Positions 12,158 to 23,728 of a DNA stretch of 64,000 bases are shown one piece after another. Positions within the stretch are counted from its first letter, which is position 1; each line of letters starts with the position of its first letter. The position numbers were made by a program, and so were the translations under genes. This stretch comes from Escherichia coli (GTDB taxonomy: Bacteria > Pseudomonadota > Gammaproteobacteria > Enterobacterales > Enterobacteriaceae): assembly GCF_003790525.1 (NCBI RefSeq), contig NZ_CP033635.1, one strand, 5' to 3'. The notes below the pieces were generated by a model that was not told where the DNA came from, did not search any database, and was given only the letters and a program-made list of their open reading frames with translations.

Positions 12158-12322
12158 ATGGCAAAGCCGATCATCACGCTCAATGGCCTAAAAATCGTCA
12201 TTATGTTGGGAATGCTGGTCATTATTCTCTGCGGTATCCGTTTTGCCGCCGAGATCATCGTGCCGTTTATTCTCGCATTATTTATTGCTGTTATATATAA
12301 CTTATTTCGCTTAACTAATTGA
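12158..12322 (+). pseudogene. tqsA: tqsA 5' fragment (AI-2 exporter). The first ~46 codons are native, then 8 island-encoded codons and a stop.
   Basis: [45 protein letters not shown] matches the remembered TqsA N-terminus. The frame leaves tqsA sequence at 12294/12295. Confidence 0.9.
12286..12294 (+). repeat. attL core (TGCTGTTAT)
   Basis: Identical 9-mer at 23720..23728. The two tqsA halves rejoin in frame across it (..[11 protein letters not shown]..). Confidence 0.8.
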
Positions 12323-12365
12323 TTTAATTAAATAATTTGCACTACAAAAAGTGCCAAAAATCGCA

Positions 12366-12423
12366 AATTAACTACACCATTAACTACACCGTTCGGCGCA
12401 CTGTATGAAACAACGTGGAACAA
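12366..12423 (+). repeat. Arm module, left end: AATTAACTACACC ATTAACTACACC, then 19 nt, then ACAACGTGGAACAA
   Basis: The same two-part module recurs in the same orientation at 23567..23624, next to int. Probable arm-type Int/RDF binding sites. Confidence 0.6.
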
Positions 12424-13466
12424 ATAGACACAAGCGGCAGGCTATACCGTTATCATTTTTCAGCTATCCGTCATGAAGCTGGTGGATGATCACGGATAAC
12501 CAGGCATCTACAGCGCCTTAAAAAGCTGAACCCGACAAACATTTCTGCTTATCGGGTCCGATCGCTCTTTCTACTCGTGGCAGATGAGTTTACTAGGAAG
12601 GGGGGAACATTGTATCAGGCTATCCCCTTTCTGTGCTGATTCGGCTGGTGAATGATCTACTTGGGGCACTACACTTTTCGGATAGTGCGGGTATCCGGTT
12701 TTCTGCCTCATCGAATTTTAAGCCTTCTGACGGCCTGTATATCATTTCCTGTGGAGTTGCCGCCCTGATAGCGAATACTGCGGCAGCATGTGATTTACCC
12801 CCCGTTCTGTTGATGTTTGATGTGGCTGGTTGATGTGCTGCCATGTTTTCCGCCAATGGTGGAAAAGCCCACCAGCGCAACGCAGGACGCATAAAACCAT
12901 TGCGATGACTCTGGACGCAAAACCACGTTTAACGATGTTTTGCACTGAACCAGAATACTGTTCGTTTTTGTCTCGATGTCCGTACGTATTACGTCCGCAC
13001 CTAATCCGGCATCATGCCCACCAGCGTAACGCATTTTTTTAATTTCGTGGCTGTGCGTCCACCAGCTACGCCGGAATGGGGTATTCCGTTTCAACGGAAC
13101 AGGTATGACGAACATAATCGCACCTTCTCCCGAAAACGGTGCGACCTGCATCATCGAAATGGTGATTCAGCTACTCGGCGATTTTCACCATTCAGAATCT
13201 GGCGGGTGAGTTATCCAGCTTCCACCAATGGGGGATTCTGGAACAATCAACGGGTTACGCCTTATCAGCAAAAAAGCACATCAACTGTAAAGGAAATCGT
13301 TATGGTTGCTGGTGGGCTGCGTCACCATCATGGTGATGATGCTGTCCAGTCAGCCGGAACGGTTGAACAGGGTGGCTATGGGTCACTCTGTTGTGCGTTA
13401 TTTGCGTGATCCTGGTACGGGGTGACTATCTTTCAGATAGTCGGTTGCCTGGTTACACGAAAAAAT
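12424..13466. other. ORF-poor, Chi-rich segment at the integrase-distal end of the island
   Basis: Only short, mutually overlapping ORFs (131 aa or less) in all six frames. Five Chi octamers: + strand at 12478 and 13308; - strand at 12869, 13018 and 13059. 18-bp direct repeat GCCCACCAGCG(C/T)AACGCA at 12867 and 13016. Confidence 0.6.
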
Positions 13467-13838
13467 TTACTTCCTGCGTTTATCCTGCTTTGTATGCCCG
13501 TGCTGAATGCCCCGCAGTGGATCTTCTTTTTTCAGGTCGATCCCCATGTCCGTTAGTGTTTTTGTGGCGGCGGTTCTTATGGCACAAATCAGGTCTCTTT
13601 CCGGTTCCCGGGTTATGGTTGCCTTCCGGATGCATGCCGTTCGTCGTTCCGTTACATACTGACGCGCTTCATCACTTGCCGCCTGTTTCAGTAACTCACC
13701 CCAGCGATTAGCCGCCCGTCGCCATAAACCTTTCGCTTCCAGTTCTTCCGCTTTGTCATCATGCACCATAAGCATAATCCCATTGATACCTGTTAACTCT
13801 GAATGGTTGGTTTCTGTTCTTTTGATAATTTCCCGCAT
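13467..13838 (-). CDS. PerC-family transcriptional regulator (copy 2)
   Basis: Core MVHDDKAEELEAKGLWRRAANRWGELL is the PerC/Pch signature and parallels the paralog at 17352..17624. The internal ATG at 13769 (100 aa) may be the true start. Confidence 0.7.
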   Translation of the reverse strand: MREIIKRTETNHSELTGINGIMLMVHDDKAEELEAKGLWRRAANRWGELLKQAASDEARQYVTERRTACIRKATITREPERDLICAIRTAATKTLTDMGIDLKKEDPLRGIQHGHTKQDKRRK

Positions 13839-13840
13839 AG

Positions 13841-13872
13841 CTTATTGTATGACAGTACTGTCCCACAATAAG
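13841..13872. promoter_or_regulatory. 32-bp nested palindrome in the divergent perC2 / orf96 control region
   Basis: CTTATTGTatGACAGTACTGTCccACAATAAG. Overlaps the aaggag RBS of the 13884 ORF. Confidence 0.5.
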
Positions 13873-13883
13873 GAGTTGCACGC

Positions 13884-14174
13884 ATGAGAATGACTAGGCA
13901 CAAAAAACAGATTCTTGAACTCTACAAACCTGAGTATCGCGATTGGGTGCGGGTGGAGGCCGGAGATCCGCCTTTTGATGTTCGTGGTGTGACAGTGCTG
14001 CTCTATGGTTCCGAATATCGGCGATATCACATAGAGGCAACACGAAGGACGCTAAACGCTATGGTTCGTGATAAGTTGCTGGAGCGTGTGAAAGTCCGTG
14101 AGCCACGTTTTGATGTGCGTATTGGTGGCGATGGTGCGCATTGCACGGTAATCCGCTATGGCCTGGTAAGGTAA
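13884..14174 (+). CDS. Hypothetical protein, 96 aa (island cargo)
   Basis: ATG preceded by aaggag. No family recognised. Confidence 0.6.
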   Translation: MRMTRHKKQILELYKPEYRDWVRVEAGDPPFDVRGVTVLLYGSEYRRYHIEATRRTLNAMVRDKLLERVKVREPRFDVRIGGDGAHCTVIRYGLVR

Positions 14175-14204
14175 GCCATCGGGTAAATCAGATGATTAAA
14201 TCAC

Positions 14205-14226
14205 CAGAATGTAAATTTACATTCTG
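14205..14226. terminator. Perfect 22-bp palindrome between convergent ORFs
   Basis: cagaatgtaaatttacattctg. No clear T-tract. Confidence 0.4.
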
Positions 14227-14276
14227 CCAGCCACCAGCTACCCTCCTCAAAATTGAGGACCCTTTTTATCAACTGG

Positions 14277-14558
14277 TTACCGCCGCAACCGTTCCGGCTT
14301 CTTCCACTGATAAGTGTTTTTCGCGCTCTCCTGATACATCGCCACGCGTCGACGGTATGCCAGCAACTCTAGTACTCTGATTCGTATGTCGCGCATATCC
14401 ACGCCGTTAAGCTCAATACCATCACGGCGCATTACATCAGCAACAACACGCACATAATTTTCGGCGGTCACGCTGTCCGGCTGCGTGGCCTGTTCGTCAT
14501 GCTGCTGGCTGATTCCGGTAACGCGGCGGATTAATCCCAGTAGTTCGACTTCTGTCAT
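14277..14558 (-). CDS. Hypothetical protein, 93 aa
   Basis: Track ORF 14277..14756 runs through the cos/cosB DNA. The internal ATG at 14558 (MTEVELLGLIRRV...) lies just past cos copy 1. Confidence 0.55.
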   Translation of the reverse strand: MTEVELLGLIRRVTGISQQHDEQATQPDSVTAENYVRVVADVMRRDGIELNGVDMRDIRIRVLELLAYRRRVAMYQESAKNTYQWKKPERLRR

Positions 14559-14591
14559 TGTGCCCCCATCGCTCTGATAGTCTGGTGTCGT

Positions 14592-14656
14592 CGGGTCCTT
14601 TCCGGCATGTGGACCCGTTACGGGGCGTCGACCTCGCGCGTTTTCACTATTTATGA
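14592..14656 (+). other. Lambda-like cosQ-cosN, copy 1; predicted 12-nt cohesive end GGGCGTCGACCT at 14623..14634
   Basis: GGGTCCTTTCCGG..CCGTTACGGGGCGTCGACCTCGCGCGTTTTCACTATTTATGA closely parallels my recollection of lambda cos (..GGGTCCTTTCCGGTGATCCGACAGGTTACGGGGCGGCGACCTCGCGGGTTTTCGCTATTTATGAAAA). Confidence 0.8.
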
Positions 14657-14672
14657 AAATTTTTCGGGATCC

Positions 14673-14769
14673 ATGTCCGGTTTCTCTGCAAGTTAACCAT
14701 ATGAAAAATATAAAAACATGCTTTCCATGAACCGGACATGCGCAAAAAACAGACACTAAAACCGGACAT
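14673..14769 (+). repeat. cosB-like array: three AACCGGACAT sites (14673..14682 inverted, 14730..14739, 14760..14769) around an A/T-rich spacer
   Basis: Position just after cosN, and the one-inverted plus two-direct layout, mimic lambda R3-I1-R2-R1 with a different site sequence. Confidence 0.6.
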
Positions 14770-14837
14770 CGAACCAGTTAACCGAAAGTGTGCACAAATC
14801 ACATTCATTGCTGCGAGTGATTAACAAGTTATCGGCT

Positions 14838-15272
14838 TTACTGTTCTGTATCGGCTGATTGCTCCATGCTGGCACGGCGAACGCTTACGGCATGACGCCA
14901 CCCAGCCAGAAAGCCAGCCATTTTATTTCGTGCCTTGCTCACATCTTCCGGTGAATAGCCGTAAATATGCAAACCTTCATCAAATCGATGTTCTGTTTCT
15001 TCACTGGAGTACTCGTCACGCTCAGATGAAAGCAGCCTCGCAAACATAATTTTTTCCAGCGCACTGGTTTCTACGTGATATCCGATGGTCTGAAGATGGC
15101 TTTTACCTGAATACCAAAGCAATGTATGCCCGATGTGATAACCGCCAGACTTTCCGCGATCCGCATTAAGATACGGCATCCCCTGTTTGGTCCATGCGCG
15201 AATAGTGGTTCTGTTAACCTTGAAATGTTCAGCTATTTCCTGCTGACTTACAAAACAAGCTTTATCAATCAT
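14838..15272 (-). CDS. Nu1-like small terminase / packaging-specificity protein (N-terminal wHTH)
   Basis: VSQQEIAEHFKVNRTTIRAWTKQGMPYL aligns by eye with lambda Nu1 VNKKQLADIFGASIRTIQNWQEQGMPVL. Starts 67 nt downstream of cos copy 2, the lambda cos-Nu1 arrangement. The C-terminal half is not recognisably Nu1-like. Confidence 0.75.
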   Translation of the reverse strand: MIDKACFVSQQEIAEHFKVNRTTIRAWTKQGMPYLNADRGKSGGYHIGHTLLWYSGKSHLQTIGYHVETSALEKIMFARLLSSERDEYSSEETEHRFDEGLHIYGYSPEDVSKARNKMAGFLAGWRHAVSVRRASMEQSADTEQ

Positions 15273-15339
15273 AATGTTACCTTAACTGCATGGTTAAATA
15301 TCAATCAAGTGGTGGTGGTGTCACCTTCACGGAAAAACG

Positions 15340-15404
15340 TCATAAATAGCGAAAACGTGCGAGGTCGACGCCCCGTAACGGGTCCACATGCCGGAAAGGA
15401 CCCG
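15340..15404 (-). other. Lambda-like cosQ-cosN, copy 2 (inverted); cohesive-end sequence at 15362..15373
   Basis: Reverse complement of 14592..14656 with 2 mismatches in 65 nt. No AACCGGACAT sites between it and the Nu1-like start. Confidence 0.8.
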
Positions 15405-15429
15405 CAAAAAAAGCCGGATTTCTCCGGCC
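15405..15429 (-). terminator. Rho-independent terminator after the capsid operon
   Basis: Minus strand reads GCCGGA-gaaa-TCCGGC followed by TTTTTTT. Nearly identical hairpin at 17322..17345. Confidence 0.7.
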
Positions 15430-15502
15430 TTGTCTCAGATGGTTTTCAGTATGCGATAGATGTCGCCGTCATCGCCCTGGTTTGTGCCATCGTTCCCCCT
15501 GC

Positions 15503-15838
15503 TTATCGGGCCAGCGGCTGAACGGATACGCCGGAACCCGCAAAGGCGGCGCATTTTTTCGCATCGGTGTCGACGCTCTCAGGCCAGTTAACGGCGGCAA
15601 TATTGAATATCCCCGTCTTGTAACACTGTGCTGATTTCTGCTTTGACGTGTCCACAGGGTACGAGGTCAGATAAACAGCCTTGCCAGATTCCTTACCATC
15701 CCACGCCTTAAACTCGCCATTGTCTGCCAGCATCAGCGGGGTAAATTCCTGAATAACGCCAGCATCAGCGGCAAAATGTACCAGCGTCGTGGATACCTGT
15801 TGGCTGCCTGAAAATAACTCAATGTATGGAGCGTCCAT
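15503..15838 (-). CDS. Head decoration protein (lambda gpD-like)
   Basis: 111 aa. TPLMLADNGEFKAWDG and AAFAGSGVSV parallel gpD TPLMLDTSSRKLVAWDG and TAFAGTAISIV. Confidence 0.8.
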   Translation of the reverse strand: MDAPYIELFSGSQQVSTTLVHFAADAGVIQEFTPLMLADNGEFKAWDGKESGKAVYLTSYPVDTSKQKSAQCYKTGIFNIAAVNWPESVDTDAKKCAAFAGSGVSVQPLAR

Positions 15839-15849
15839 AGAATCCCCCG

Positions 15850-16905
15850 TTAAGCAATTTTGACGGTAACAAATTTGCGAATATCTGCCGGTACAGGCTG
15901 CGGTGCGCTGTGCGTCTGCACGTACTCAATCGCCGGATCGCCGTCCTCAATCCAGTTTTTCGGGTAGTACATGTTTTGCGTTGCGCCCGTTCTTACCGCT
16001 TCCTGATCCATAATCGCACCATATGCCACCAGCCCTTTATTGTTGGTGTTACCCAGGACCAGCAAATCAGGCTCAAGGAAATATTTTTCGGTCCCGTCGC
16101 TGTCAGTGTATTTGCCGGAATAGACGATAAGGGCCAGATCACCAAGATAGCCTTTAAAGCTCACCACTTCGCCCAGGTTTTTACAGGCCAGCTCGGCGGC
16201 GGATTCTGATCCACGGGAAAGATCGTACAGTTCACGGAATTTTTTAAAGCTGCGTAATGTGCGCCATACCTCACCGCCCATAATCATGACGTTGGCGGGG
16301 CAACCTGCCTGATCAGCATAAAGCTCGATGTCATAGATTGGGTCGTGCATGTCTTTATCCTGCTGGGACCATTTTTTACCACTGGCCTGCTGTATGATGC
16401 AGTTTTCCGGTATTTTCCAGTCGATTTCATAGCGTTCTATGCCTTCGCCCTCAATGATGTTTTTTCCGGTCGTTACCGCATTCACCGCCAGCCATTCCAC
16501 GCGCGCCTTAATGGCGTTTATCTGGCGGCGCATGTTGCCAGTAATCAGGCGCATACGGCGGTAAGTTGGATCGTTAAGCTGTGCCGGATCTTCTCCATCC
16601 ATGCGCATGATGGTCTTTGTTGGATCGATTTCGTGCTTTGGCTTCATGTAGCCTGGTTTAATCGTGCTGGTTTCGTACCCTTTATCGCGCTGGACCTGAC
16701 TACCCACCATAGGAGAACAGAACGCTGACATCGTAACCTCTTCAATGTCCAGGGTGTCCAGCATGATGTTTTGGGTGTTGAAGGTCGCCACGTTCGGGAA
16801 AAACAGCGTGGTAAACAGCGGACTAAATTTATATTCCGAAATATCCCCGCGATTCAGGTACGCGAAAAGCTGGTTAGTTGTAAGTGCCTTTGCTTTGCCT
16901 GTCAT
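15850..16905 (-). CDS. Major capsid protein (lambda gpE family)
   Basis: 351 aa. PGYMKPKHEIDP and YYPKNWIEDGDPA parallel gpE PGYVKPKHEVNP and RYPKNWVTTGDPA. Confidence 0.9.
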   Translation of the reverse strand: MTGKAKALTTNQLFAYLNRGDISEYKFSPLFTTLFFPNVATFNTQNIMLDTLDIEEVTMSAFCSPMVGSQVQRDKGYETSTIKPGYMKPKHEIDPTKTIMRMDGEDPAQLNDPTYRRMRLITGNMRRQINAIKARVEWLAVNAVTTGKNIIEGEGIERYEIDWKIPENCIIQQASGKKWSQQDKDMHDPIYDIELYADQAGCPANVMIMGGEVWRTLRSFKKFRELYDLSRGSESAAELACKNLGEVVSFKGYLGDLALIVYSGKYTDSDGTEKYFLEPDLLVLGNTNNKGLVAYGAIMDQEAVRTGATQNMYYPKNWIEDGDPAIEYVQTHSAPQPVPADIRKFVTVKIA

Positions 16906-17111
16906 TATTCACCTCCGTGAACCTGATTGATACCCAGCGCCGCACGCAAATAGGTGCGCACCTGCCAGCCTGTTGACGGCTCAACCATCGCCAGCGGATC
17001 AAGTCCTGCCGCAATGCCTGCTTTTACATTCTGCTGGTGGCGTTCCTTGAGCGCCTCCACGATGTCGGGGCTTATGTAGACCGTCACCCCGCCTTTTTTC
17101 TCTTCTGCCAT
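16905..17111 (-). CDS. Hypothetical 68-aa protein, first gene of the capsid operon
   Basis: Stop overlaps the MCP start (TAATG). aagaggaa RBS. Confidence 0.6.
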   Translation of the reverse strand: MAEEKKGGVTVYISPDIVEALKERHQQNVKAGIAAGLDPLAMVEPSTGWQVRTYLRAALGINQVHGGE

Positions 17112-17145
17112 AGTCAGAAATTCCTCTTTGACTTAAAAAATCATA

Positions 17146-17195
17146 ACTGGATGTTCATCCAGTCCTGATTATAATCATGATTGCATTTTGCGCAA
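17146..17195 (-). promoter_or_regulatory. Candidate sigma70 promoter of the capsid operon with an overlapping 18-bp palindrome (CTG-N10-CAG)
   Basis: Minus strand: TTGCGC (17195..17190), 16 nt, TATAAT (17173..17168), then ACTGGATGAACATCCAGT (17163..17146). Confidence 0.5.
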
Positions 17196-17321
17196 CAATA
17201 TTGAGTTACGTTGCAAATTATGAAATGATTATCCCGATCATGTGTGTCAGTTCACCATAAAAAACCTCGTATACAAAAGCCCCATAAGCCCCCTGTGACC
17301 TTATCGGGCTTTTTTTAGGCG

Positions 17322-17345
17322 TAAAAAAGCCGGATTGCTCCGGCT
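17322..17345 (-). terminator. Rho-independent terminator after perC copy 1
   Basis: Minus strand reads AGCCGGA-gcaa-TCCGGCT followed by TTTTTT. A plus-strand hairpin with a T-run sits back-to-back at 17286..17317. Confidence 0.7.
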
Positions 17346-17351
17346 GTGTGC

Positions 17352-17624
17352 TCACTTCTGCGGGTAGTTGCGCCATATTGCTTTGCCAATACCAGCTATC
17401 CCCATTTGTTTTTCAGTGCGATTAACTGACCTTTTCAGAGCGCCTAAATCATCCGGCGGCTCCGGTGGCCTCTGTGCCTTACGGATACATTCCGCGCGAC
17501 GCATTGCCACCTGTTCGCGCTCCTTGTCTGTCTCCACCAGCCTCATAACTTCACCCCATCGCGCCGCCGCCCTCCGGTAAAAGCCTTTTGCCTCGAGTTC
17601 CTCCGCTATGCGGTCATGTACCAT
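17352..17624 (-). CDS. PerC-family transcriptional regulator (copy 1)
   Basis: 90 aa from MVHDRIAEELEAKGFYRRAAARWGEVM. Start is 11 nt after the ssb stop with a ggggg RBS. Track ORF 17352..17744 overlaps ssb. Confidence 0.75.
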   Translation of the reverse strand: MVHDRIAEELEAKGFYRRAAARWGEVMRLVETDKEREQVAMRRAECIRKAQRPPEPPDDLGALKRSVNRTEKQMGIAGIGKAIWRNYPQK

Positions 17625-17634
17625 CGTCACCCCC

Positions 17635-18045
17635 TCAGAACGGAATATCATCACCGTAAGGGTCATCGCCTCCCGCTGGTGGCTGATTACCCTGTGTGCC
17701 TGTGGTTTTGCGTCTGTTCCCGCCAGGACGTGCCGCACGGGCACTGATTACGCTGTCTGCAATAACCTGCCAGCCCTGCCGCGTTTCCCCGTTCTGTCCG
17801 GTCCACTGGCTGACCTGCATCGTGCCGGATACGCTGGCAACGTCGCCTTTTTGATGTTTAGCCAGAAAGTCGGCCTGTTTGCCAAATGCGATGACCGATA
17901 ACCATAACGTCGCCTGTCCGTCCTGTGCCTGGCCGCATGGTAAAGATACCGCCATACGCGCCAGCGTCATCGGTGTACCCTTACTGGTCTGTTTTACCTG
18001 CGGGTCGTCCACCAGCCGCCCGTAAGCTGCTATCTGTGCTGTCAT
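17635..18045 (-). CDS. ssb: Single-stranded DNA-binding protein
   Basis: 136 aa with an OB-fold N-terminus, a Gly/Pro/Gln linker and the acidic tail DDIPF. Confidence 0.85.
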   Translation of the reverse strand: MTAQIAAYGRLVDDPQVKQTSKGTPMTLARMAVSLPCGQAQDGQATLWLSVIAFGKQADFLAKHQKGDVASVSGTMQVSQWTGQNGETRQGWQVIADSVISARAARPGGNRRKTTGTQGNQPPAGGDDPYGDDIPF

Positions 18046-18284
18046 GCTGTCTGCTCTCCGGTTTTAACGTTGATGGTTGTTACCTGTTCTGCTTCGGCAA
18101 TATCCCGCTCTGTCAGCGTGGCAAAGTTTGCCGCCGTCGTTGTCATGAATGCGCTTATCAGTTCGGGATGTGCTTTCGCGTATCCTTCCCCTGTGTTGCG
18201 GTCGATGATTTTTATCGCCACCCTCAGCCAGTGCTCTGTAAGGTCAATGGCGCGGTGATCTGTCTTTTTGTGGCTTACCTTCAT
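18042..18284 (-). CDS. Hypothetical protein, 80 aa
   Basis: ATGA overlap with the ssb start. No family recognised. Confidence 0.6.
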   Translation of the reverse strand: MKVSHKKTDHRAIDLTEHWLRVAIKIIDRNTGEGYAKAHPELISAFMTTTAANFATLTERDIAEAEQVTTINVKTGEQTA

Positions 18285-18287
18285 GAT

Positions 18288-18656
18288 TTACTCCAGAGTA
18301 CCGCTATTGCTGCTGTCGTTAACCGGATACCAGGCAAATACCATCGATTCACCACAGTGAACAAACTTCTTATCCGGCAGATAAAGGCACTCGCACATTC
18401 CCTCATCAGGACTATGCGGACTCATGCCCAGCTCACTGGTCAGCACGGGTAAGATTTCGCGGCAGGTGTTCCCCGCACCGAAATAATCAACCTCACAAAG
18501 CGCCCATGCAGCAATCGGGCTGTACCATTCCGTGCCGTCGTCGTCTTTGAACTTAGCCCACCAGCCAGGAAGGGCAGTTGATATGCTCAGTGTTTCAATT
18601 TCAGTGTTCATAAATTTACCTTCGGTATTTTGTCCTGCTGTTCGATTTTTATTCAT
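18288..18656 (-). CDS. Hypothetical protein, 122 aa (alternative start at 18611)
   Basis: First gene downstream of the iteron region. No family recognised. Confidence 0.6.
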   Translation of the reverse strand: MNKNRTAGQNTEGKFMNTEIETLSISTALPGWWAKFKDDDGTEWYSPIAAWALCEVDYFGAGNTCREILPVLTSELGMSPHSPDEGMCECLYLPDKKFVHCGESMVFAWYPVNDSSNSGTLE

Positions 18657-18660
18657 TGCT

Positions 18661-18860
18661 CACCATCTCTCACTTTTACTACTCACTTTTTAAAGCGTCT
18701 CGCTTCGTCTCACTTGAGATTTTTGTGTTTTGTATGTGCATGTTTCATAAGTGTTTTTTCACTGCTCACTTTTGAGCATGTATACAGGTGAGAAAGTGAG
18801 TAATTGTGTTAATATTTTGTAAAAACCTCACCATTACTCACTTTTACTACTCACTTTTTA
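18661..18860. repeat. Putative origin of replication: CTCACTT iterons flanking an A/T-rich core
   Basis: CTCACTT at 18669, 18682, 18709, 18765, 18837 and 18850, with an inverted copy at 18794. 32-bp direct repeat at 18661..18692 and 18829..18860. Immediately 3' of the initiator gene. Confidence 0.7.
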
Positions 18861-20264
18861 CAGTGGTCCTACATCATCACCATCAATGTAAATCACGGCG
18901 TCTTTTTCCAGTTTGGCTAACCATCGCCGCATATTTTTCACGTCATACCCAAGCCGTTTCATGTCATCACGTAACAGCGGGATCGTGCACTTGTCGCCGT
19001 TCTGTGTGCGTGAACGGATGCACCCCCATAGCGCGGTATGGTTTTCCGTCTTGTTGCCTGCCTCCTCGATGCGCTCCAGTTCAGCAGGGGCGCGGGGAAC
19101 GTCAATCACCACCATGGACACAATTTCTTCGCCATCTGTATCGGTGAACACCTCCACGCTTTTAAGGTCGTATGCACTCTCTTTTGGCTCCTCTGCGTCC
19201 TTCATCTTCGTACACGCCGCAACCAGTGCTGTAACGTCTGAATTTTCCCTGCTGATTCGGTACTCTGCATCAAGCGCGGCACGGAATGCACTGGAACCAC
19301 GCGCCCCCTTTGTTTCATCCTTGCCGGAATGGTGAACCACCAGCACCGTGGCCCCTGTGGCCTGCTTTATCGCGTCACACCCCTGGATAAATGCGCCCAT
19401 ATCACGGGAATCATTTTCATCATTCCCACCAAAGCAACGGGCCAGCGTGTCGATCACAATCAGCCGCACATTTTCGCCCGTTCTGCTCTTAACAAGTCCG
19501 GCAGTCCTGATAACCTGCTCCACATAGTCAGGCGATGCAGGGAAAACAGGCGCGTTAATGATGCACAAATCTGTAACCACCTTGTCGTGGGTTATCTCCC
19601 ACGCCTTAACGCGGCGTTTTACGCCCATGCTGCCTTCACCAGCGATATAGATAACCGCACCCTTACTTACCCTGCGGCCTCCCCATGCCATACCTGTGGC
19701 AACATGGCACGACCAGGAAATGGCGAGGAACGATTTATAAGAACCGCTGGCCCCGTAGGTGCTGCATAATGACTCAGCCGGAATAAGCCCCTTAATGACG
19801 TAGCTTTGCTGCGCATCGAATCCCTCAGAACCCCATGAGATGGGAAGTGTGATTTTTCGCTTTCCGCCATTCATGACCAGGCTTTCCCCTCTCTCCCATG
19901 TTTCCCGTAGTCGTGGTAGCTGGTCGCTCCAGTCCTCCAGCAGTTCGAAATTTTCAGAAAGTAGCCGCGCCTCCTGGACTCCGGCGATCGCCAGTTTTGT
20001 GGCAATGGTCAGCATCTGCATATCGTCCAGGTTTCCGGCGCGTATGACCTTTACCCTGTATCGTCCTTCATCAACAATCTGTAAGTTGTCCAGTTCGCTT
20101 AACTGATAACGGCCCAGATAAACCGGAGGGATGGGATCGCCTGCTTTTTTGGCCTGTGCAATCATGTAATGTTCTGCAAAGGAGTGAGCATTATCACCCG
20201 CAAAAATAACCGCCTCAGTGTGTTTATCTTTCGGTAACAGTTTTACGTTCGGTGCAAGTTTCAT
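18858..20264 (-). CDS. Replication initiator, RecA/DnaB-like (AAA_25-type) ATPase with a C-terminal wHTH; Pri-Rep analogue
   Basis: 468 aa. Walker A GASGSYKS, Walker B LIVIDTLARCF, VLVVHHSGKDETKGARGSSA. Confidence 0.8.
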   Translation of the reverse strand: MKLAPNVKLLPKDKHTEAVIFAGDNAHSFAEHYMIAQAKKAGDPIPPVYLGRYQLSELDNLQIVDEGRYRVKVIRAGNLDDMQMLTIATKLAIAGVQEARLLSENFELLEDWSDQLPRLRETWERGESLVMNGGKRKITLPISWGSEGFDAQQSYVIKGLIPAESLCSTYGASGSYKSFLAISWSCHVATGMAWGGRRVSKGAVIYIAGEGSMGVKRRVKAWEITHDKVVTDLCIINAPVFPASPDYVEQVIRTAGLVKSRTGENVRLIVIDTLARCFGGNDENDSRDMGAFIQGCDAIKQATGATVLVVHHSGKDETKGARGSSAFRAALDAEYRISRENSDVTALVAACTKMKDAEEPKESAYDLKSVEVFTDTDGEEIVSMVVIDVPRAPAELERIEEAGNKTENHTALWGCIRSRTQNGDKCTIPLLRDDMKRLGYDVKNMRRWLAKLEKDAVIYIDGDDVGPL

Positions 20265-20548
20265 TTCTTACCCCCTGCGACCAGCATTTCACGGATTTTG
20301 CGGATATAACTTGCAGCACGTTTCTGATTAACGGCTTTACGATGGCCCACCAGCGTGAAATCACGCCGGAACTGATAAACAGGCATAACGCAGTCATATT
20401 CGTAGCCTTCACGGCGGTAAGTGATGCGACGTTCCTCCACGCCCTTAATCATTACCGTGCCGCCGTAGTTATCACGGAAAATATCGCCGGGACGGATTTC
20501 AGGACGAGCGGGGCCGCTGGCATTAACGCCAGAATTTTTATTTTTCAT
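20261..20548 (-). CDS. Small conserved phage/satellite protein (DUF4222-like by recollection)
   Basis: 95 aa. ATGA overlap with the initiator start. Confidence 0.6.
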   Translation of the reverse strand: MKNKNSGVNASGPARPEIRPGDIFRDNYGGTVMIKGVEERRITYRREGYEYDCVMPVYQFRRDFTLVGHRKAVNQKRAASYIRKIREMLVAGGKK

Positions 20549-20553
20549 GTTTT

Positions 20554-20781
20554 TTATTCTCCGGTGTGCTGTTCTTTATATCTGTCGTGAATTGCCATCA
20601 CTGTATTTAATTCATTAATAACAGCCGTTAATAGCGTACGCACGGCAGAAAACATCATTGAATCAGATTCATCGCCACTTTCCTGCACATCAATTAAATT
20701 AAGTAGTAATGCGTCCATTTCCTTTGCGCGGATTAATGCCTTTTCACAATGAAAAATAACACCAAAGGGTATTTTATTCAT
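20554..20781 (-). CDS. Hypothetical protein, 75 aa
   Basis: ATG at 20781 overlaps the icd-like stop (ATGAATAA). Track ORF starts 14 codons earlier. Confidence 0.55.
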   Translation of the reverse strand: MNKIPFGVIFHCEKALIRAKEMDALLLNLIDVQESGDESDSMMFSAVRTLLTAVINELNTVMAIHDRYKEQHTGE

Positions 20782-20971
20782 GACTCCCCTCCTGACGGAT
20801 ACGGGCGGCGAATACAGCGACACAACCGGACGGGCAACGGTTACGCGCTTCGCGTTCCGTCCAGGCGGTCACGTGGATAATTTGAGATTCTCCGGCACTC
20901 AGTGCCAGAAAACGCCACACAAAGGCGGTTTGTGTGTGCGCTAGTCGTGGGGTATGCTGTGTTCCAGCCAT
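20774..20971 (-). CDS. Icd-like (P4 host cell-division inhibitor-like) protein, 65 aa
   Basis: MAGTQHTPRLAHTQTAFVWRFLALSAGESQIIHVTAWTEREARNRC..VFAARIRQEG fits the remembered Icd-like pattern. aggag RBS. It forms the C-terminal part of the implausible 308-aa track ORF. Confidence 0.65.
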   Translation of the reverse strand: MAGTQHTPRLAHTQTAFVWRFLALSAGESQIIHVTAWTEREARNRCPSGCVAVFAARIRQEGSHE

Positions 20972-21056
20972 AATCGTTACTCCTGTTAACGGTTTGGTTA
21001 GACGCCCTGCATGTGTTACAGCACTGCGGGGCGTTGTCTTTTTAACGGCTTTCGTG

Positions 21057-21104
21057 ATAGGGTGTACACCTATCAAGCAAAAACATAACGCTATAGGTGT
21101 ACAC
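21057..21104. promoter_or_regulatory. Operator-like sites sharing TAGGTGTACAC in the divergent icd / RHH control region
   Basis: ATAGGGTGTACACCTAT (21057..21073, near-palindrome) and ATAGGTGTACAC (21093..21104, abutting the RHH ATG). The minus-strand TTGACA hexamer overlaps the RHH start. Confidence 0.5.
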
Positions 21105-21299
21105 ATGTCAACAGTTATTAAGCGAGATAAAAAACCAAAGGGAACAGGAAAAGCCCCCCCATTCCATATGCGAATAGCTCCAGAACTGAAAGAGCAGTTT
21201 GATAATGAGGCCAGCAATGATGGGGTAAGCCTAGCCAACTGGCTTAAAGAGTTGGGGCGCGCCGAACTAAAGCGACGCGGCATTGAACCTAAAGGCTGA
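21105..21299 (+). CDS. Ribbon-helix-helix (Arc/CopG/HicB-antitoxin-like) DNA-binding protein, 64 aa
   Basis: FHMRIAPELKEQFDNEASNDGVSLANWLKELGRAELKR is a typical RHH fold signature. Opposite strand to the rest of the island. Confidence 0.7.
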   Translation: MSTVIKRDKKPKGTGKAPPFHMRIAPELKEQFDNEASNDGVSLANWLKELGRAELKRRGIEPKG

Positions 21300-21302
21300 T
21301 GT

Positions 21303-21428
21303 ATGACTGAAAAGCAGACCGATAACAAACTTTCTCTACCAGAGAATAAACCAGCAGGCTTCTTACCAAGAAAAATCCTTGATGAGATCAAACGCCGCCA
21401 GCGCCGCAAGGCCAAAGAGCAGGAATAG
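21303..21428 (+). CDS. 41-aa basic micro-protein, co-oriented with the RHH gene
   Basis: ATG 4 nt after the RHH stop. MTEKQTDNKLSLPENKPAGFLPRKILDEIKRRQRRKAKEQE. Followed by a terminator. Confidence 0.4.
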   Translation: MTEKQTDNKLSLPENKPAGFLPRKILDEIKRRQRRKAKEQE

Positions 21429-21459
21429 CCCACCAGCAAGCCAGCACACTGATCACATT

Positions 21460-21488
21460 GGCCACCGTGACAGGTGGCCTTTTCTTTG
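21460..21488 (+). terminator. Rho-independent terminator of the RHH operon
   Basis: GGCCACC-gtgaca-GGTGGCC followed by TTTTCTTT. Confidence 0.7.
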
Positions 21489-21540
21489 CCCGTTATCCGG
21501 CAATTGTGGCGCTTCGCCACACGGTTGATATAATTCCCCT

Positions 21541-21611
21541 GCTCAGATTCATTTTTTGCGCGGCAGGTAAATTGTTCAGAAAGGCGGCTCCTTATCGGGG
21601 CCGCTTTTTTT
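21541..21611 (+). ncRNA. Candidate ~70-nt small RNA, antisense to the alpA-to-icd leader
   Basis: Extended -10 TGaTATAAT at 21526..21534. Hairpin plus T7 terminator at 21580..21611. No ORF. Confidence 0.3.
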
Positions 21612-21752
21612 ATGTCTGAAAAACCGCGATTTTGTTGTTTTTCAGTTTCACCAGGCCGAACGAAGCCCCGCCCATGTTCGGGCGTATATCCAGTCTTCAT
21701 GGTTAAATCTCTGTATTAGTGGATGGGTGGCGGCTGTGTGCCGCCAGTCTTT

Positions 21753-21941
21753 TTAGTGAACTGCCTCGCAGCTTTCCTTCCATGCCAGAACTTCGGATAA
21801 AGACCAGCCAACGGAACGACCGCCCAGCTTACGCCGTGATGGGAATTGTCCGGCCTTTTCCAGGCGGTAGCGGCATGAGCGGCTAAGGCCTGTTAGCTTT
21901 TCGCATTCTTTTTCACGTATAAAGCGATCAGTGCTTAACAC
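21753..21941 (-). CDS. alpA: AlpA-family (MerR-like HTH) phage regulatory / excision-control protein
   Basis: 62 aa, GTG start. REKECEKLTGLSRSCRYRLEKAGQFPSRRKLGGRSVGWSLSEVLAW is the AlpA signature. Confidence 0.8.
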   Translation of the reverse strand: MLSTDRFIREKECEKLTGLSRSCRYRLEKAGQFPSRRKLGGRSVGWSLSEVLAWKESCEAVH

Positions 21942-22100
21942 TATTGCCCCCTTTCGTTTCTTAAAGAGTTATTTCGTGTTCTATTGCGTTGGGATGTGTC
22001 TGATTGTGTCAGGGTGATTCAGAGTTGGCAAATGTTGGTGGCGGGTATTTTACAGAAACGGGGTGATTTTAATAAAAATCATTTTAATTCAGTATTATGC

Positions 22101-22133
22101 AAAGGCATAAAATCTCGTTTTATGCCTTTTTTC
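22101..22133 (+). terminator. Strong hairpin plus T-run in the int-alpA spacer
   Basis: AAAGGCATAAAA-tctcg-TTTTATGCCTTT followed by TTT. Confidence 0.55.
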
Positions 22134-22233
22134 TCACTATTTAAAGCGTTATTCGCTAATGTATAAAAAACCAGTTGAGCATTAAAAATCAGCAACTTAT
22201 AAATCTGTATACTTTTTGACCTCTTGTTCGTGG

Positions 22234-22267
22234 TTGTTTCACGTTGTTGTGTATTGTTGCACGTTGT
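22234..22267 (-). repeat. Two more ACAACGTGNAACAA motifs (22234..22247 and 22254..22267), 20 bp apart
   Basis: Same 14-mer as in both arm modules (12410 and 23611), here in the opposite orientation just downstream of int. Confidence 0.5.
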
Positions 22268-22315
22268 ATCTGTGCACTTATCCAGTATGCGCATACTGAA
22301 AAAACACGAAAAAAA

Positions 22316-23566
22316 TTATTTTCTTCTGGCTACTGGTAGCGTGGTTACGTTTTCATGTGCTCCCGCCAGTATCTCCAACCGCTCCACCCACATATCCAGC
22401 GCATTGCGTTTCGCATCCAGATAACGGGAATGATTATAAACTCGCTGCATTCCTGGCATCTGGTGGCCTGTAAGCTGCTCCACGACGTGAGGATCCACGC
22501 CTAAATCGTTCAGCATCGTTGTAAAGGTGCGCCGGATGTCATGCAGTGACCATTGAGGGTGTTTTAGCCTCCTGTGCGCTAATCTGCCGTACTGCGATAC
22601 GCTGGCCTCCTGTTTCACTTCCCCCAGTAATAAGCCCGTGTGCCTGTTCTGCTCCACCAGCCGCGTGACGAACGGCAGGATCGCTTCCGGTATGGGCCGG
22701 AATATTGCGACCTTCGTTTTGCTGTGCTCCTTCGGAACGGTCCAGAGCATTTCCGTGAAATCCCACTCCCCGATCTCCGATAACCTCAGTTCTACCGTCC
22801 TGGCTCCGAAGACAATCAGGAGGCGGATTAGTGCGACGTAGTAAGGGGAAAATATTTTTTTGTCCAGTGCCTGCAATAATTCGCCCAGTTCTTTGGTGCT
22901 TAAGACACGTTCGCTTATATCCGGTTTTTTCCCAACGTCCGCCACGTTCAGATCGTCCAGAACGTTGCTGATTGCATAGCGCCGCCTCCGGCAAAACTTA
23001 AGCGCCTGTTTGCACGCCTGTAGCACGAATCCGGCAGTAACAGGCGTTCGCTTTGCCACCCGATCAAAACAGGCCAGCCAGTGCCGTAGCTCGCATTTAT
23101 CCAGCGGCATAGCACCAATGTGCTGTATTACGTGATTATTAAGTCGCCTTTTCAGGGCGATATAATCCACGCGGTTTTCCTTTACGTAAGACTCAAGCCA
23201 GTAGGTGAGCGCATCTCCAACCGTTACAGGCTTTAACGCTTCCTGCATGGTGTAATTCATCTCATGACGTGGATTTTTCCCCTCAGCCAGCCATGCGCGA
23301 CACTGGGCGGCTTTTTCCCTGGCTGATTTCAGGCTCAGATCAGGATAATTTCCCAGCTTAATACGTTCCGGTCGTGTCTCTCTTCCCGTTCCGGCCCTGT
23401 AAGTGAAATACCAGGTTAAAAGGCCGCTGGTTGAATGCCTGACGCTCAGATTTCCACCGTCATTAAGAAAGGCTGTTTTTTGGGCGGGTGTGCCGTTGAT
23501 TTTCCTTAGCTGTGTATCGCTCAGCTTGTTAAGTGCTCTGGTCATAATTTTGAATCCGGTCATCAC
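22316..23566 (-). CDS. int: Tyrosine recombinase, P4-type integrase (N-terminal arm-binding domain plus catalytic domain)
   Basis: 416 aa. LSDTQLRK N-terminus, catalytic HDIRRTF...GHQ..MQRVYNHSRY. Alternative start at 23545. Confidence 0.9.
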   Translation of the reverse strand: MMTGFKIMTRALNKLSDTQLRKINGTPAQKTAFLNDGGNLSVRHSTSGLLTWYFTYRAGTGRETRPERIKLGNYPDLSLKSAREKAAQCRAWLAEGKNPRHEMNYTMQEALKPVTVGDALTYWLESYVKENRVDYIALKRRLNNHVIQHIGAMPLDKCELRHWLACFDRVAKRTPVTAGFVLQACKQALKFCRRRRYAISNVLDDLNVADVGKKPDISERVLSTKELGELLQALDKKIFSPYYVALIRLLIVFGARTVELRLSEIGEWDFTEMLWTVPKEHSKTKVAIFRPIPEAILPFVTRLVEQNRHTGLLLGEVKQEASVSQYGRLAHRRLKHPQWSLHDIRRTFTTMLNDLGVDPHVVEQLTGHQMPGMQRVYNHSRYLDAKRNALDMWVERLEILAGAHENVTTLPVARRK

Positions 23567-23624
23567 AATTAACTACACCATTAACTACACCGATCGTTGC
23601 ACAAAGGGCTACAACGTGAAACAA
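23567..23624 (+). repeat. Arm module, right end (AATTAACTACACCATTAACTACACC, then 19 nt, then ACAACGTGAAACAA)
   Basis: Begins 1 nt upstream of the int start codon. Direct repeat of 12366..12423. Confidence 0.6.
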
Positions 23625-23719
23625 GCTGGAACAAGAAAAATCACAAATTTGTTTATAATCAAAAACATAATGCACAACCTGAAACATTATGAAACGGCAA
23701 AAAACACTAATTGATAAAG

Positions 23720-23728
23720 TGCTGTTAT
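23720..23728 (+). repeat. attR core (TGCTGTTAT)
   Basis: Identical to 12286..12294. tqsA sequence resumes here. Confidence 0.8.

Follow-up and report, generated by a model that had tools for sequence, protein, structure and literature searches.

We identified, in a 64,000-nucleotide stretch of the Escherichia coli genome (assembly GCF_003790525.1, contig NZ_CP033635.1; this whole stretch is referred to here as the window), an island which by its sequence belongs to the phage-inducible chromosomal islands (PICIs) and which is densely loaded with Chi, the octamer GCTGGTGG recognised by RecBCD. The island is inserted in tqsA and its borders are formed by a 9-bp direct repeat (TGCTGTTAT) at 12286-12294 and 23720-23728. 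Because joining the flanks at this repeat restores an intact tqsA of 344 aa, the island was delimited to 12295-23728 (11,434 bp). E. coli CM2 holds a near-identical copy, and the parts of the island were named from the RefSeq annotation of that copy (where it applied), from Pfam and PHROGs scans and from a PDB sequence search:

12295..23728, no strand, island, PICI of the EcCICFT073 family (Rpp-type, cos) in tqsA (direct repeat and restored tqsA)
14590..14770, plus strand, lambda-type cos with phage-like cosB (cosQ, cosN match at 14620-14637, cosB; sequence match)
14838..15272, minus strand, homolog of Rpp (redirecting phage packaging), 144 aa (PDB 6HLK RppC, E = 4e-32)
15300..15402, minus strand, second cos, inverted, about 100 bp upstream of rpp (cosN match at 15359-15376; sequence match)
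15503..15838, minus strand, lambda D-like head decoration protein (PF02924, E = 4e-17)
15850..16905, minus strand, lambda E-like major capsid protein (PF03864, E = 2e-49)
17635..18045, minus strand, SSB (PF00436; phrog_44)
18858..20264, minus strand, RepA-type replicative helicase of the island replicon (PF13481 AAA_25, E = 8.5e-43; PHROGs helicase-primase families)
21753..21941, minus strand, AlpA regulator (PF05930, E = 5e-18)
22316..23566, minus strand, tyrosine integrase (PF13356 and PF00589)

Further genes encode a DUF4222 protein and two PerC paralogs. The traits of EcCICFT073-type PICIs are present: integrase and AlpA at one end of a site-specific, direct-repeat-flanked insertion, an own replicon (RepA AAA_25 helicase and SSB), Rpp, and homologs of the E and D capsid proteins. 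On these sequence traits the island is classed in the EcCICFT073 family, whose tqsA insertion site is also used in E. coli strains 042, SMBL, EH53 and STEC434. The 144-aa protein, which also gave weak Nu1/HTH and terminase-small-subunit matches, was assigned as Rpp and is predicted to redirect the small terminase subunit (TerS) of the helper phage. No match to a large terminase (TerL) was found by Pfam among the 20 island open reading frames (ORFs), and portal, protease, terminase, tail and lysis genes were absent from the ORF list and the Pfam matches.

Two cos sites in inverted orientation flank rpp, and such an inverted pair is found in the family. A cos at about 14.6 kb had been proposed in a preliminary description of this DNA; the lambda-type cosN match at 14620-14637 supports it, but the second, inverted cos at 15359-15376 had been missed, and the arrangement with cos1 and cos2 was already described for EcCICFT073, which is reported to be without a phage-type cosB (PMC6092414; PMC6739421). 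Escherichia phages PhiR12_1 to _5 have, immediately before Nu1, a cos region that matches the plus-strand cos together with its cosB side at 94% identity over 179 bp. The rpp-proximal cos is the only cos in relatives from Klebsiella and Phytobacter, and the element CACCACCACCAC that it carries is also present in the single cos of those relatives.

An exact search on both strands of the whole window gave the following 16 Chi within the island; the fractions give the number of loci, among 88 loci of the family described below, that share the site:

12478..12485, plus strand, intergenic, near the left attachment site (attL), context in only 3/88 loci
12869..12876, minus strand, first site of a cluster of three, in a doubtful 106-aa ORF
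13018..13025, minus strand, second site of the cluster, in a different reading frame
13059..13066, minus strand, third site of the cluster, in the third reading frame
13308..13315, plus strand, in a 67-aa ORF on the plus strand
14231..14238, minus strand, intergenic
16026..16033, minus strand, in the major capsid gene, sense strand, 0.65 kb from the rpp-proximal cos, 75/88 loci
17033..17040, plus strand, antisense in a 68-aa gene, 48/88 loci
17534..17541, minus strand, in the second PerC gene, 38/88 loci
17675..17682, plus strand, antisense in the SSB gene, 56/88 loci
18009..18016, minus strand, in the SSB gene, sense strand, 78/88 loci
18558..18565, minus strand, in a 107-aa gene
19337..19344, minus strand, in the RepA helicase gene, 29/88 loci
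20347..20354, minus strand, in the DUF4222 gene
21430..21437, minus strand, in a 308-aa ORF
22654..22661, minus strand, in the integrase gene, 32/88 loci

Outside the island six Chi were found (2155+, 6571-, 30607+, 40910-, 46235- and 59932+), so that the window holds 22, 16 of them in the island (4 on the plus and 12 on the minus strand). The sites had been listed by eye in the preliminary description, and the exact search agrees with that list in every coordinate and strand. The roughly tenfold enrichment claimed there is also borne out, as the density of 1.40 Chi/kb in the island is 12.3 times that of the 52.6 kb of flanking DNA (0.11/kb) and 6.4 times that of K-12, in which there is on average one Chi per 4.6 kb (PMC12315714). 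At the K-12 density, the Poisson probability of 16 or more sites is 1e-8. Fourteen Chi lie in ORFs, 12 in sense and two in antisense orientation and in all three frames, and two are intergenic. Repeats are not the source of the count, since all 16 sites differ in sequence context. The segment 12400-14270 is an accessory region, rare among relatives, which carries a second PerC paralog and six of the 16 Chi (about 3/kb), in contexts that recur in only 2-3 of the 88 loci. Three Chi within 200 bp occupy three different frames of the 106-aa ORF; as this ORF has no family match, it may not be a real gene.

Null models were used to define how many Chi would be expected. Dinucleotide shuffles on the whole window gave a mean of 2.25 and a maximum of 7 Chi. 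Permutation of synonymous codons within genes, which preserves the proteins and the codon usage of each gene, gave a mean of 4.7 (sd 1.3) and a maximum of 10 in 5000 runs. Permutation of codon order gave a mean of 2.5, and recoding of the island proteins with the codon usage of 30 flanking host ORFs a mean of 3.8 with a maximum of 10 in 3000 runs. In these three codon-based models the two intergenic Chi were kept fixed and are counted in the figures. The same 30 host ORFs under the recoding model had 4 Chi against 2.7 expected, which indicates that this model behaves properly. Relative to the coding expectation, both strands are enriched about 8-fold (3 observed against 0.36 expected on the plus strand, 11 against 1.43 on the minus strand). 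Codon usage had been named beforehand as a possible trivial source of the count; the enrichment survives this comparison, as the null models never gave more than 10 Chi.

The enrichment is confined to the exact word. Chi is the commonest octamer of the island with 16 copies, followed by an A-run with 8 copies, and the 24 one-mismatch variants of Chi occur 0-2 times each. The observed/expected ratio (O/E) of Chi in the island is 20.8 under a trinucleotide model and 4.7 under an order-4 model; the trinucleotide value for the flanks is 1.4. Among six E. coli islands tested, Chi ranks first among octamers in five, with a trinucleotide O/E of 13-21, and the published medians for this model are 3.1 for lambdoid phages without recombination genes (Rec-) and 2.3 for E. 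coli (Bobay et al., PMC3784561). A maximal-order Markov expectation gave no information, as its 7-mer counts come largely from the Chi copies, and was dropped. The Chi enrichment is thus real, specific to the exact octamer and independent of codon usage.

It could be argued that the enrichment of the octamer has nothing to do with RecBCD and that the word is, for example, the binding site of a PICI or helper protein or a compositional or peptide-motif artefact. Any sequence-specific binding protein would select an exact word, and eight of the 14 coding Chi are in the common xxG-CTG-GTG-Gxx frame. We consider this explanation exceedingly unlikely, since the codon-preserving and host-codon nulls were rejected, the one-mismatch variants are not enriched and the sites lie on either strand, in each of the three frames and also between genes. 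In addition, no consensus beyond the octamer was detected in 85 distinct Chi contexts, and no action of the octamer other than with RecBCD is known (Zheng et al., PMC12315714).

Chi loading is not peculiar to the copy in the window but spans PICIs of E. coli, Klebsiella, Phytobacter and Salmonella. EcCICFT073 has 11 Chi in 11.5 kb, and the islands of E. coli O157:H7 and 2013C-3264 (phoQ/roxA site) and of 042, SMBL, STEC434 and EH53 (tqsA site) have 9-13 each, with 0-2 Chi per 10 kb in the flanks of these six. The family set comprised 88 loci with a total of 846 kb; most were IMG/VR contigs whose capsid protein was 92% or more identical. The 64 loci of at least 8 kb have a median of 0.90 Chi/kb and a range of 0.57-1.40, in which the island in the window is the maximum; short host flanks, which are possible in IMG/VR contigs, would lower these densities, and related loci are phylogenetically non-independent. 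In all 88 loci together, 776 Chi instances reduce to 77 different positions, of which the capsid-sense strand has 44 and the opposite strand 33. A few of the positions are nearly universal and many are rare, from which it follows that individual Chi turn over while their number per element is kept. The spread of the 77 positions over unrelated gene modules further argues against a protein-binding or peptide origin of the word.

More distant PICIs were recognised by Rpp homologs which are 57-70% identical. Those of Klebsiella quasipneumoniae have 6-7 Chi in 11.1 kb, that of Phytobacter has 10 in 11.35 kb and those of Salmonella have 12, 9 and 5 in about 11-12 kb, which corresponds to 0.42-1.04 Chi/kb, with 0-0.23/kb in their flanks. 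Five of these relatives (L093, L094, L097, L098 and L100) lie inside the head-gene region of a lambdoid prophage, and in L094 fragments of an E-like capsid gene are found on both sides of the island; such a helper-embedded arrangement has been described before (PMC10111431). The Klebsiella island carries genes with a TIR domain (CAP12-PCTIR_TIR) and an FRG domain as cargo. Scans of species-representative genomes with the capsid protein and with the Rpp alignment returned 22 and 85 pattern stretches, respectively, none of which was confirmed by tblastn; this is odd, as homologs exist in Klebsiella and Salmonella assemblies. A further 26 loci resembling capsid-forming PICIs (cf-PICIs) were found via AlpA. 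They encode an HK97-type capsid, an S78 protease and a portal, a head module unrelated to the capsid genes of the Rpp-type PICIs. Their median is 1.0 Chi/kb, 22 of the 26 have Chi as their commonest octamer, and sites also fall within the cf-specific head genes, which again does not fit a peptide motif or a protein-binding site tied to one gene module.

Genes that would protect DNA from RecBCD, or replace it, were searched for in the island. Pfam (20 ORFs) and PHROGs (16 of the 20) gave no match to a RecBCD inhibitor of the Gam, Abc2 or gp5.9 type, in line with the preliminary description, and likewise none to Red-beta, RecT, Erf, Sak or an exonuclease. Some elements near or related to these islands form a clear contrast. 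A lambdoid prophage with Gam, Bet and Exo at icd in CFT073 (12371-49001 of locus L091) is no more than about 8 kb away from EcCICFT073 and is free of Chi over its 36.6 kb. The pair is a clear local example of a split between elements with a recombination (Rec) module and elements with many Chi, and the absence of Chi from the Gam-encoding neighbour also weighs against a role of the octamer outside RecBCD. The satellite P4 has no Chi either. A comparison with other satellites had been suggested as a check; the PICI relatives came out Chi-rich, yet P4 makes clear that Chi loading is not general to E. coli satellites. The alpha protein of P4 is 41% identical to the Pri-Rep protein of EcCICFT073, and replicon type was rejected as the determinant of Chi content, as family members with a P4-alpha-like primase are Chi-rich and P4 has none. 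In the EH53 island the commonest octamers are GGTGAACA (11 copies) and CTGTTCAC (10 copies), the same word as the type-1 iteron of P4 ori/crr, and some family members thus seem, from their sequence, to carry a P4-alpha-type replicon together with its iterons. Phage PhiR12_1 carries Bet and an Abc2-like gene, and its 50 kb contain 5 Chi. Three of these (21815, 23330 and 23968) are on the plus strand within 3 kb upstream of cos, placed and oriented as would be expected of Chi that halt RecBCD coming in from the free right end, despite the Abc2-like gene.

These comparisons also bear on the possibility that the Chi sites benefit the integrated island, or mimic the host, by aiding repair of broken forks from the leading strand and so reducing the cost of carriage. 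Most Chi of the island are on the leading strand, as far as the replichore can be assigned from the negative GC skew of the window and from the gene order of K-12, and the main gene strand appears, from gene order, to be co-oriented with replication at both tqsA and phoQ/roxA. The idea has been raised for prophages (Bobay et al., PMC3784561). However, the density is 4-7 times that of the host and adjacent host DNA is at or below average, the non-leading strand is equally enriched (about 8-fold), the Gam prophage beside EcCICFT073 and the integrative P4 both have no Chi, and the helper-embedded relatives are Chi-rich while the surrounding prophage DNA is not. A benefit in the integrated state is therefore a distinctly improbable explanation of the enrichment.

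The preliminary description attached weight to the orientation of Chi relative to cos: RecBCD entering at cos and moving to higher coordinates would read minus-strand Chi. This geometry is correct, but it is not diagnostic, since on a circle or concatemer every Chi is active for one direction of travel, and we found no polarity. Twelve of the 16 Chi are in the lambda-active orientation relative to the rpp-proximal cos; this 12:4 strand split gives p = 0.08 against an even split and p = 0.44 against the 64% share of sense-strand sites predicted by codon usage alone. Orientation polarity along the cos-linearised map was absent in seven full-length islands (Mann-Whitney p 0.17-0.63), and terminal clustering of Chi was absent in the E. 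coli islands of this family. The strand split over the E. coli family is 57:43. The orientation argument is accordingly weak. Two inverted cos sites could make both orientations of Chi useful. A rule by which a single cos goes with one-directional and a double cos with two-directional Chi was tried; it fits the PICIs of Klebsiella (single cos, 7 of 7 Chi lambda-active) and Phytobacter (8 of 10) and was rejected because the Salmonella relative L098, with one detectable cos, has a 6:6 split.

A related explanation is that, whichever end of the cos-linearised island RecBCD enters, the placement of the Chi sites makes it soon meet one in the correct orientation, which would shield injected linear DNA. 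In six of the seven full-length islands the Chi nearest to each cos end is correctly oriented (outward) at 0.55-1.0 kb from the end, and the nearest wrongly oriented Chi is 1.9-3 kb in. The capsid-gene site at 16026 is present in 75 of the 88 loci and a plus-strand Chi near the attL end in all seven full-length islands, although the context of the site at 12478 is rare. The uniform orientation in the Klebsiella PICI, the three PhiR12_1 sites upstream of cos and the orientation bias of phages of the LLS class point the same way. The lack of overall polarity, the non-significant 12 of 16 with codon usage alone favouring the sense strand, the 57:43 split in the family and the even split in the one-cos Salmonella relative speak against it. 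Moreover, the seven islands share ancestry and count as roughly a single observation, which would arise by chance with a probability near 0.25, and lambda-type cohesive ends anneal quickly after injection. Published transfer into a recA recipient was also unimpaired (PMC6092414). Shielding of the injected ends is thus a possible but doubtful reason for the arrangement.

The explanation that we favour, with a probability of roughly 0.7, is that the island has been selected to carry exact Chi sites at about one per 0.7-1.2 kb on both strands, while having no detectable RecBCD inhibitor or recombinase. PICIs of this type probably rely on the host DNA-repair machinery, by analogy with some lambda-like phages. 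After induction the island would excise and replicate from its own replicon, and would have to reach a cos-cutting, lambda-type terminase in concatemeric form. RecBCD could enter at rolling-circle tails, cos cuts, broken forks or restriction cuts. At Chi, RecBCD would halt degradation and load RecA, and the end would recombine with sister copies, so that concatemers would be kept and rebuilt. For EcCICFT073 it is known that concatemers are formed and that the helper terminase, with the helper TerS, packages them at cos into full-size lambda capsids (PMC6092414; PMC6739421).

The density itself can be explained by scaling. Recognition of a single Chi by RecBCD is probabilistic, at about 20-40% per encounter. 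For recognition probabilities of 0.2-0.4 we computed that RecBCD would escape recognition over an 11.4-kb unit in 53-76% of cases at the host density (about one Chi per orientation), in 13-41% with 4 Chi and in 0.2-7% with 12 Chi. The number of Chi per replicon (9-16 in E. coli islands) is similar to that of Chi-dependent phages (8-25), and a similar number in a smaller genome accounts for the several-fold higher density. We infer that RecBCD is the selective agent and that the stage which matters most is replication and packaging in the donor cell.

Several observations weigh against selection for Chi through RecBCD. One of several small island ORFs without assigned function could be an unrecognised RecBCD inhibitor. 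Orientation is mixed and terminal clustering is lacking here, unlike in phage LLS. Lambda encodes Gam, and a helper with Gam would switch off RecBCD on induction, so that Chi would be irrelevant, or its effect masked, in crosses with a lambda helper. The searchable literature holds no RecBCD experiment on any PICI, and both EcCICFT073 papers are silent on RecBCD. Finally, EcCICFT073 was transferred into recA DH5alpha as efficiently as into the wild type (PMC6092414, Table 1). This result indicates that Chi and RecA are not needed for establishment in the laboratory, which weakens the earlier proposal that Chi protects the DNA at establishment and makes the donor stage the likelier one.

Dense Chi might also be favoured for what RecBCD does elsewhere, either by limiting the RecBCD products that feed CRISPR spacers or because amplified, Chi-rich PICI DNA acts in trans, titrating RecBCD or inactivating it (a recD-like phenocopy), and alters the outcome for the helper. 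Chi sites bound the degradation by RecBCD that feeds CRISPR, and Chi on linear DNA reportedly inactivates RecBCD in trans, in mid-1990s work by Kuzminov, Myers and Stahl; type I-E CRISPR of E. coli is, however, largely silent. RecBCD degradation products feed CRISPR adaptation (Levy 2015, as cited in PMC8791490), and PICIs reach high copy number after induction (PMC6092414). LLS-class phages, by contrast, have the same enrichment with a direct effect on growth (PMC12315714), and such by-products are an improbable cause of the Chi loading. A broader and more speculative extension of selection through RecBCD, which we put forward only tentatively, is that AlpA-type enteric PICIs, Rpp/cos-type and capsid-forming alike, depend on RecBCD as a class by saturation with Chi, whatever the recombination or anti-RecBCD functions of the helper, that Chi-rich DNA may alter RecBCD, affecting helpers without Gam and giving fewer CRISPR spacers, and that Chi content is a hidden determinant of the range of helpers and hosts.

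Two further features of the island were observed. Just within both ends lies a 26-bp direct repeat (AATTAACTACACCATTAACTACACCG, a tandem of ATTAACTACACC) at 12366-12391 and 23567-23592, which probably represents putative arm-type binding sites of the integrase. The last approximately 60 residues of the 308-aa ORF (20774-21700, minus strand) match phage transcriptional-repressor families in PHROGs. Relatives have several small genes at this place, including Icd-like genes, and the CM2 copy of the island is about 300 bp longer here; the ORF may be a fusion or deletion product.

Among known systems, the closest in working are the lambdoid phages without Rec genes (Bobay 2013; Zheng 2025), for which the Chi/RecBCD reading has been proposed and partly tested, as it has for P1 (PMC12315714; PMC3784561). 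The island is a satellite that resembles these Chi-dependent phages and is not a member of the group. Both are temperate elements of enteric hosts with lambda-type cos packaging, in both no recombinase or RecBCD inhibitor was found and Chi is over-represented as the top octamer, Chi numbers are similar (8-25 in the phages), and Chi turn over as modules shuffle. The phages differ in size (29-58 kb against 11.4 kb) and in trinucleotide O/E (median about 3 against 13-21), the islands carry two inverted cos sites, and their dependence on RecBCD is a prediction. LLS has 23 Chi, 20 of them in the active orientation and clustered at the right end, Chi is its top octamer, and RecBCD enhances its growth (PMC12315714). 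Its density of one Chi per 1.86 kb is below the one per 0.7-1.2 kb of the islands, which resembles that of the Chi-dense right-terminal 22% of LLS (about 1.06/kb, derived), and its 20:3 orientation differs from the 57:43 split without terminal clustering in the PICI family. P1, with 50 Chi in 94.8 kb and Chi as the top octamer, needs host RecA and RecBCD (PMC12315714), but it uses headful packaging with terminal redundancy, has a plasmid prophage and is 2.7 times less dense than the island. Lambda red gam chi+ mutants are likewise cos-packaged without Red and Gam, and their yield depends on RecBCD-Chi recombination for multimers; these are laboratory mutants with one or few Chi, whereas the islands have 9-16 sites, which are natural and lie on both strands. 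Which orientation of Chi is active depends on how cos is oriented (Kobayashi et al. 1982, as cited in PMC12315714).

The prototype Gram-negative cos PICI, EcCICFT073 (Fillol-Salom et al. 2018, PMC6092414; 2019, PMC6739421), shares with the island the order int, alpA, DUF4222, replication module, SSB, PerC, E-like capsid, D-like decoration protein and Rpp, and the two cosN sites. It differs in its phoQ/roxA site and P4-alpha-like Pri-Rep primase, against tqsA and the RepA helicase here, and the island in the window has an extra 2-kb accessory region with six more Chi and one phage-like cosB. Helper-induced packaging and high-frequency transfer are known only for EcCICFT073 itself (PMC6092414), and its Chi content is not mentioned in the two papers (PMC6092414; PMC6739421). 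P4, at 11.6 kb, is a satellite of the same size that likewise integrates in E. coli, and some family members have a homolog of its replication protein. It differs in its lack of Chi and in being packaged by the P2 system, which works on monomeric circles. For that reason a P4 without Chi fits the distinction drawn between concatemer-requiring and monomer-packaging phages (Bobay et al., PMC3784561).

It is a known principle that mobile elements either combine a Rec module with an anti-RecBCD function or are rich in Chi, and Chi loading of PICIs extends this principle and is not a new mechanism. No mention was found in the searchable literature that PICIs, Rpp-type and capsid-forming, are Chi-rich at 2-3 times the density of LLS or P1, in both orientations and in at least four genera, with the satellite P4 excepted. 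On Chi or RecBCD in PICIs or satellites this literature gave general reviews only, and no paper in it links the two. PICIs are intensively studied as gene-transfer agents and as engineered delivery vehicles. If the Chi sites are functional, the RecBCD/RecA status of the host and the Gam/Red content of the helper would determine PICI yield, and keeping or adding Chi would be a design rule for synthetic PICIs and cosmids. Functional Chi would also explain the difference in Chi content between P4 and PICIs, and would extend to satellites the split among phages between a Rec module and many Chi, with a density that scales inversely with genome size.

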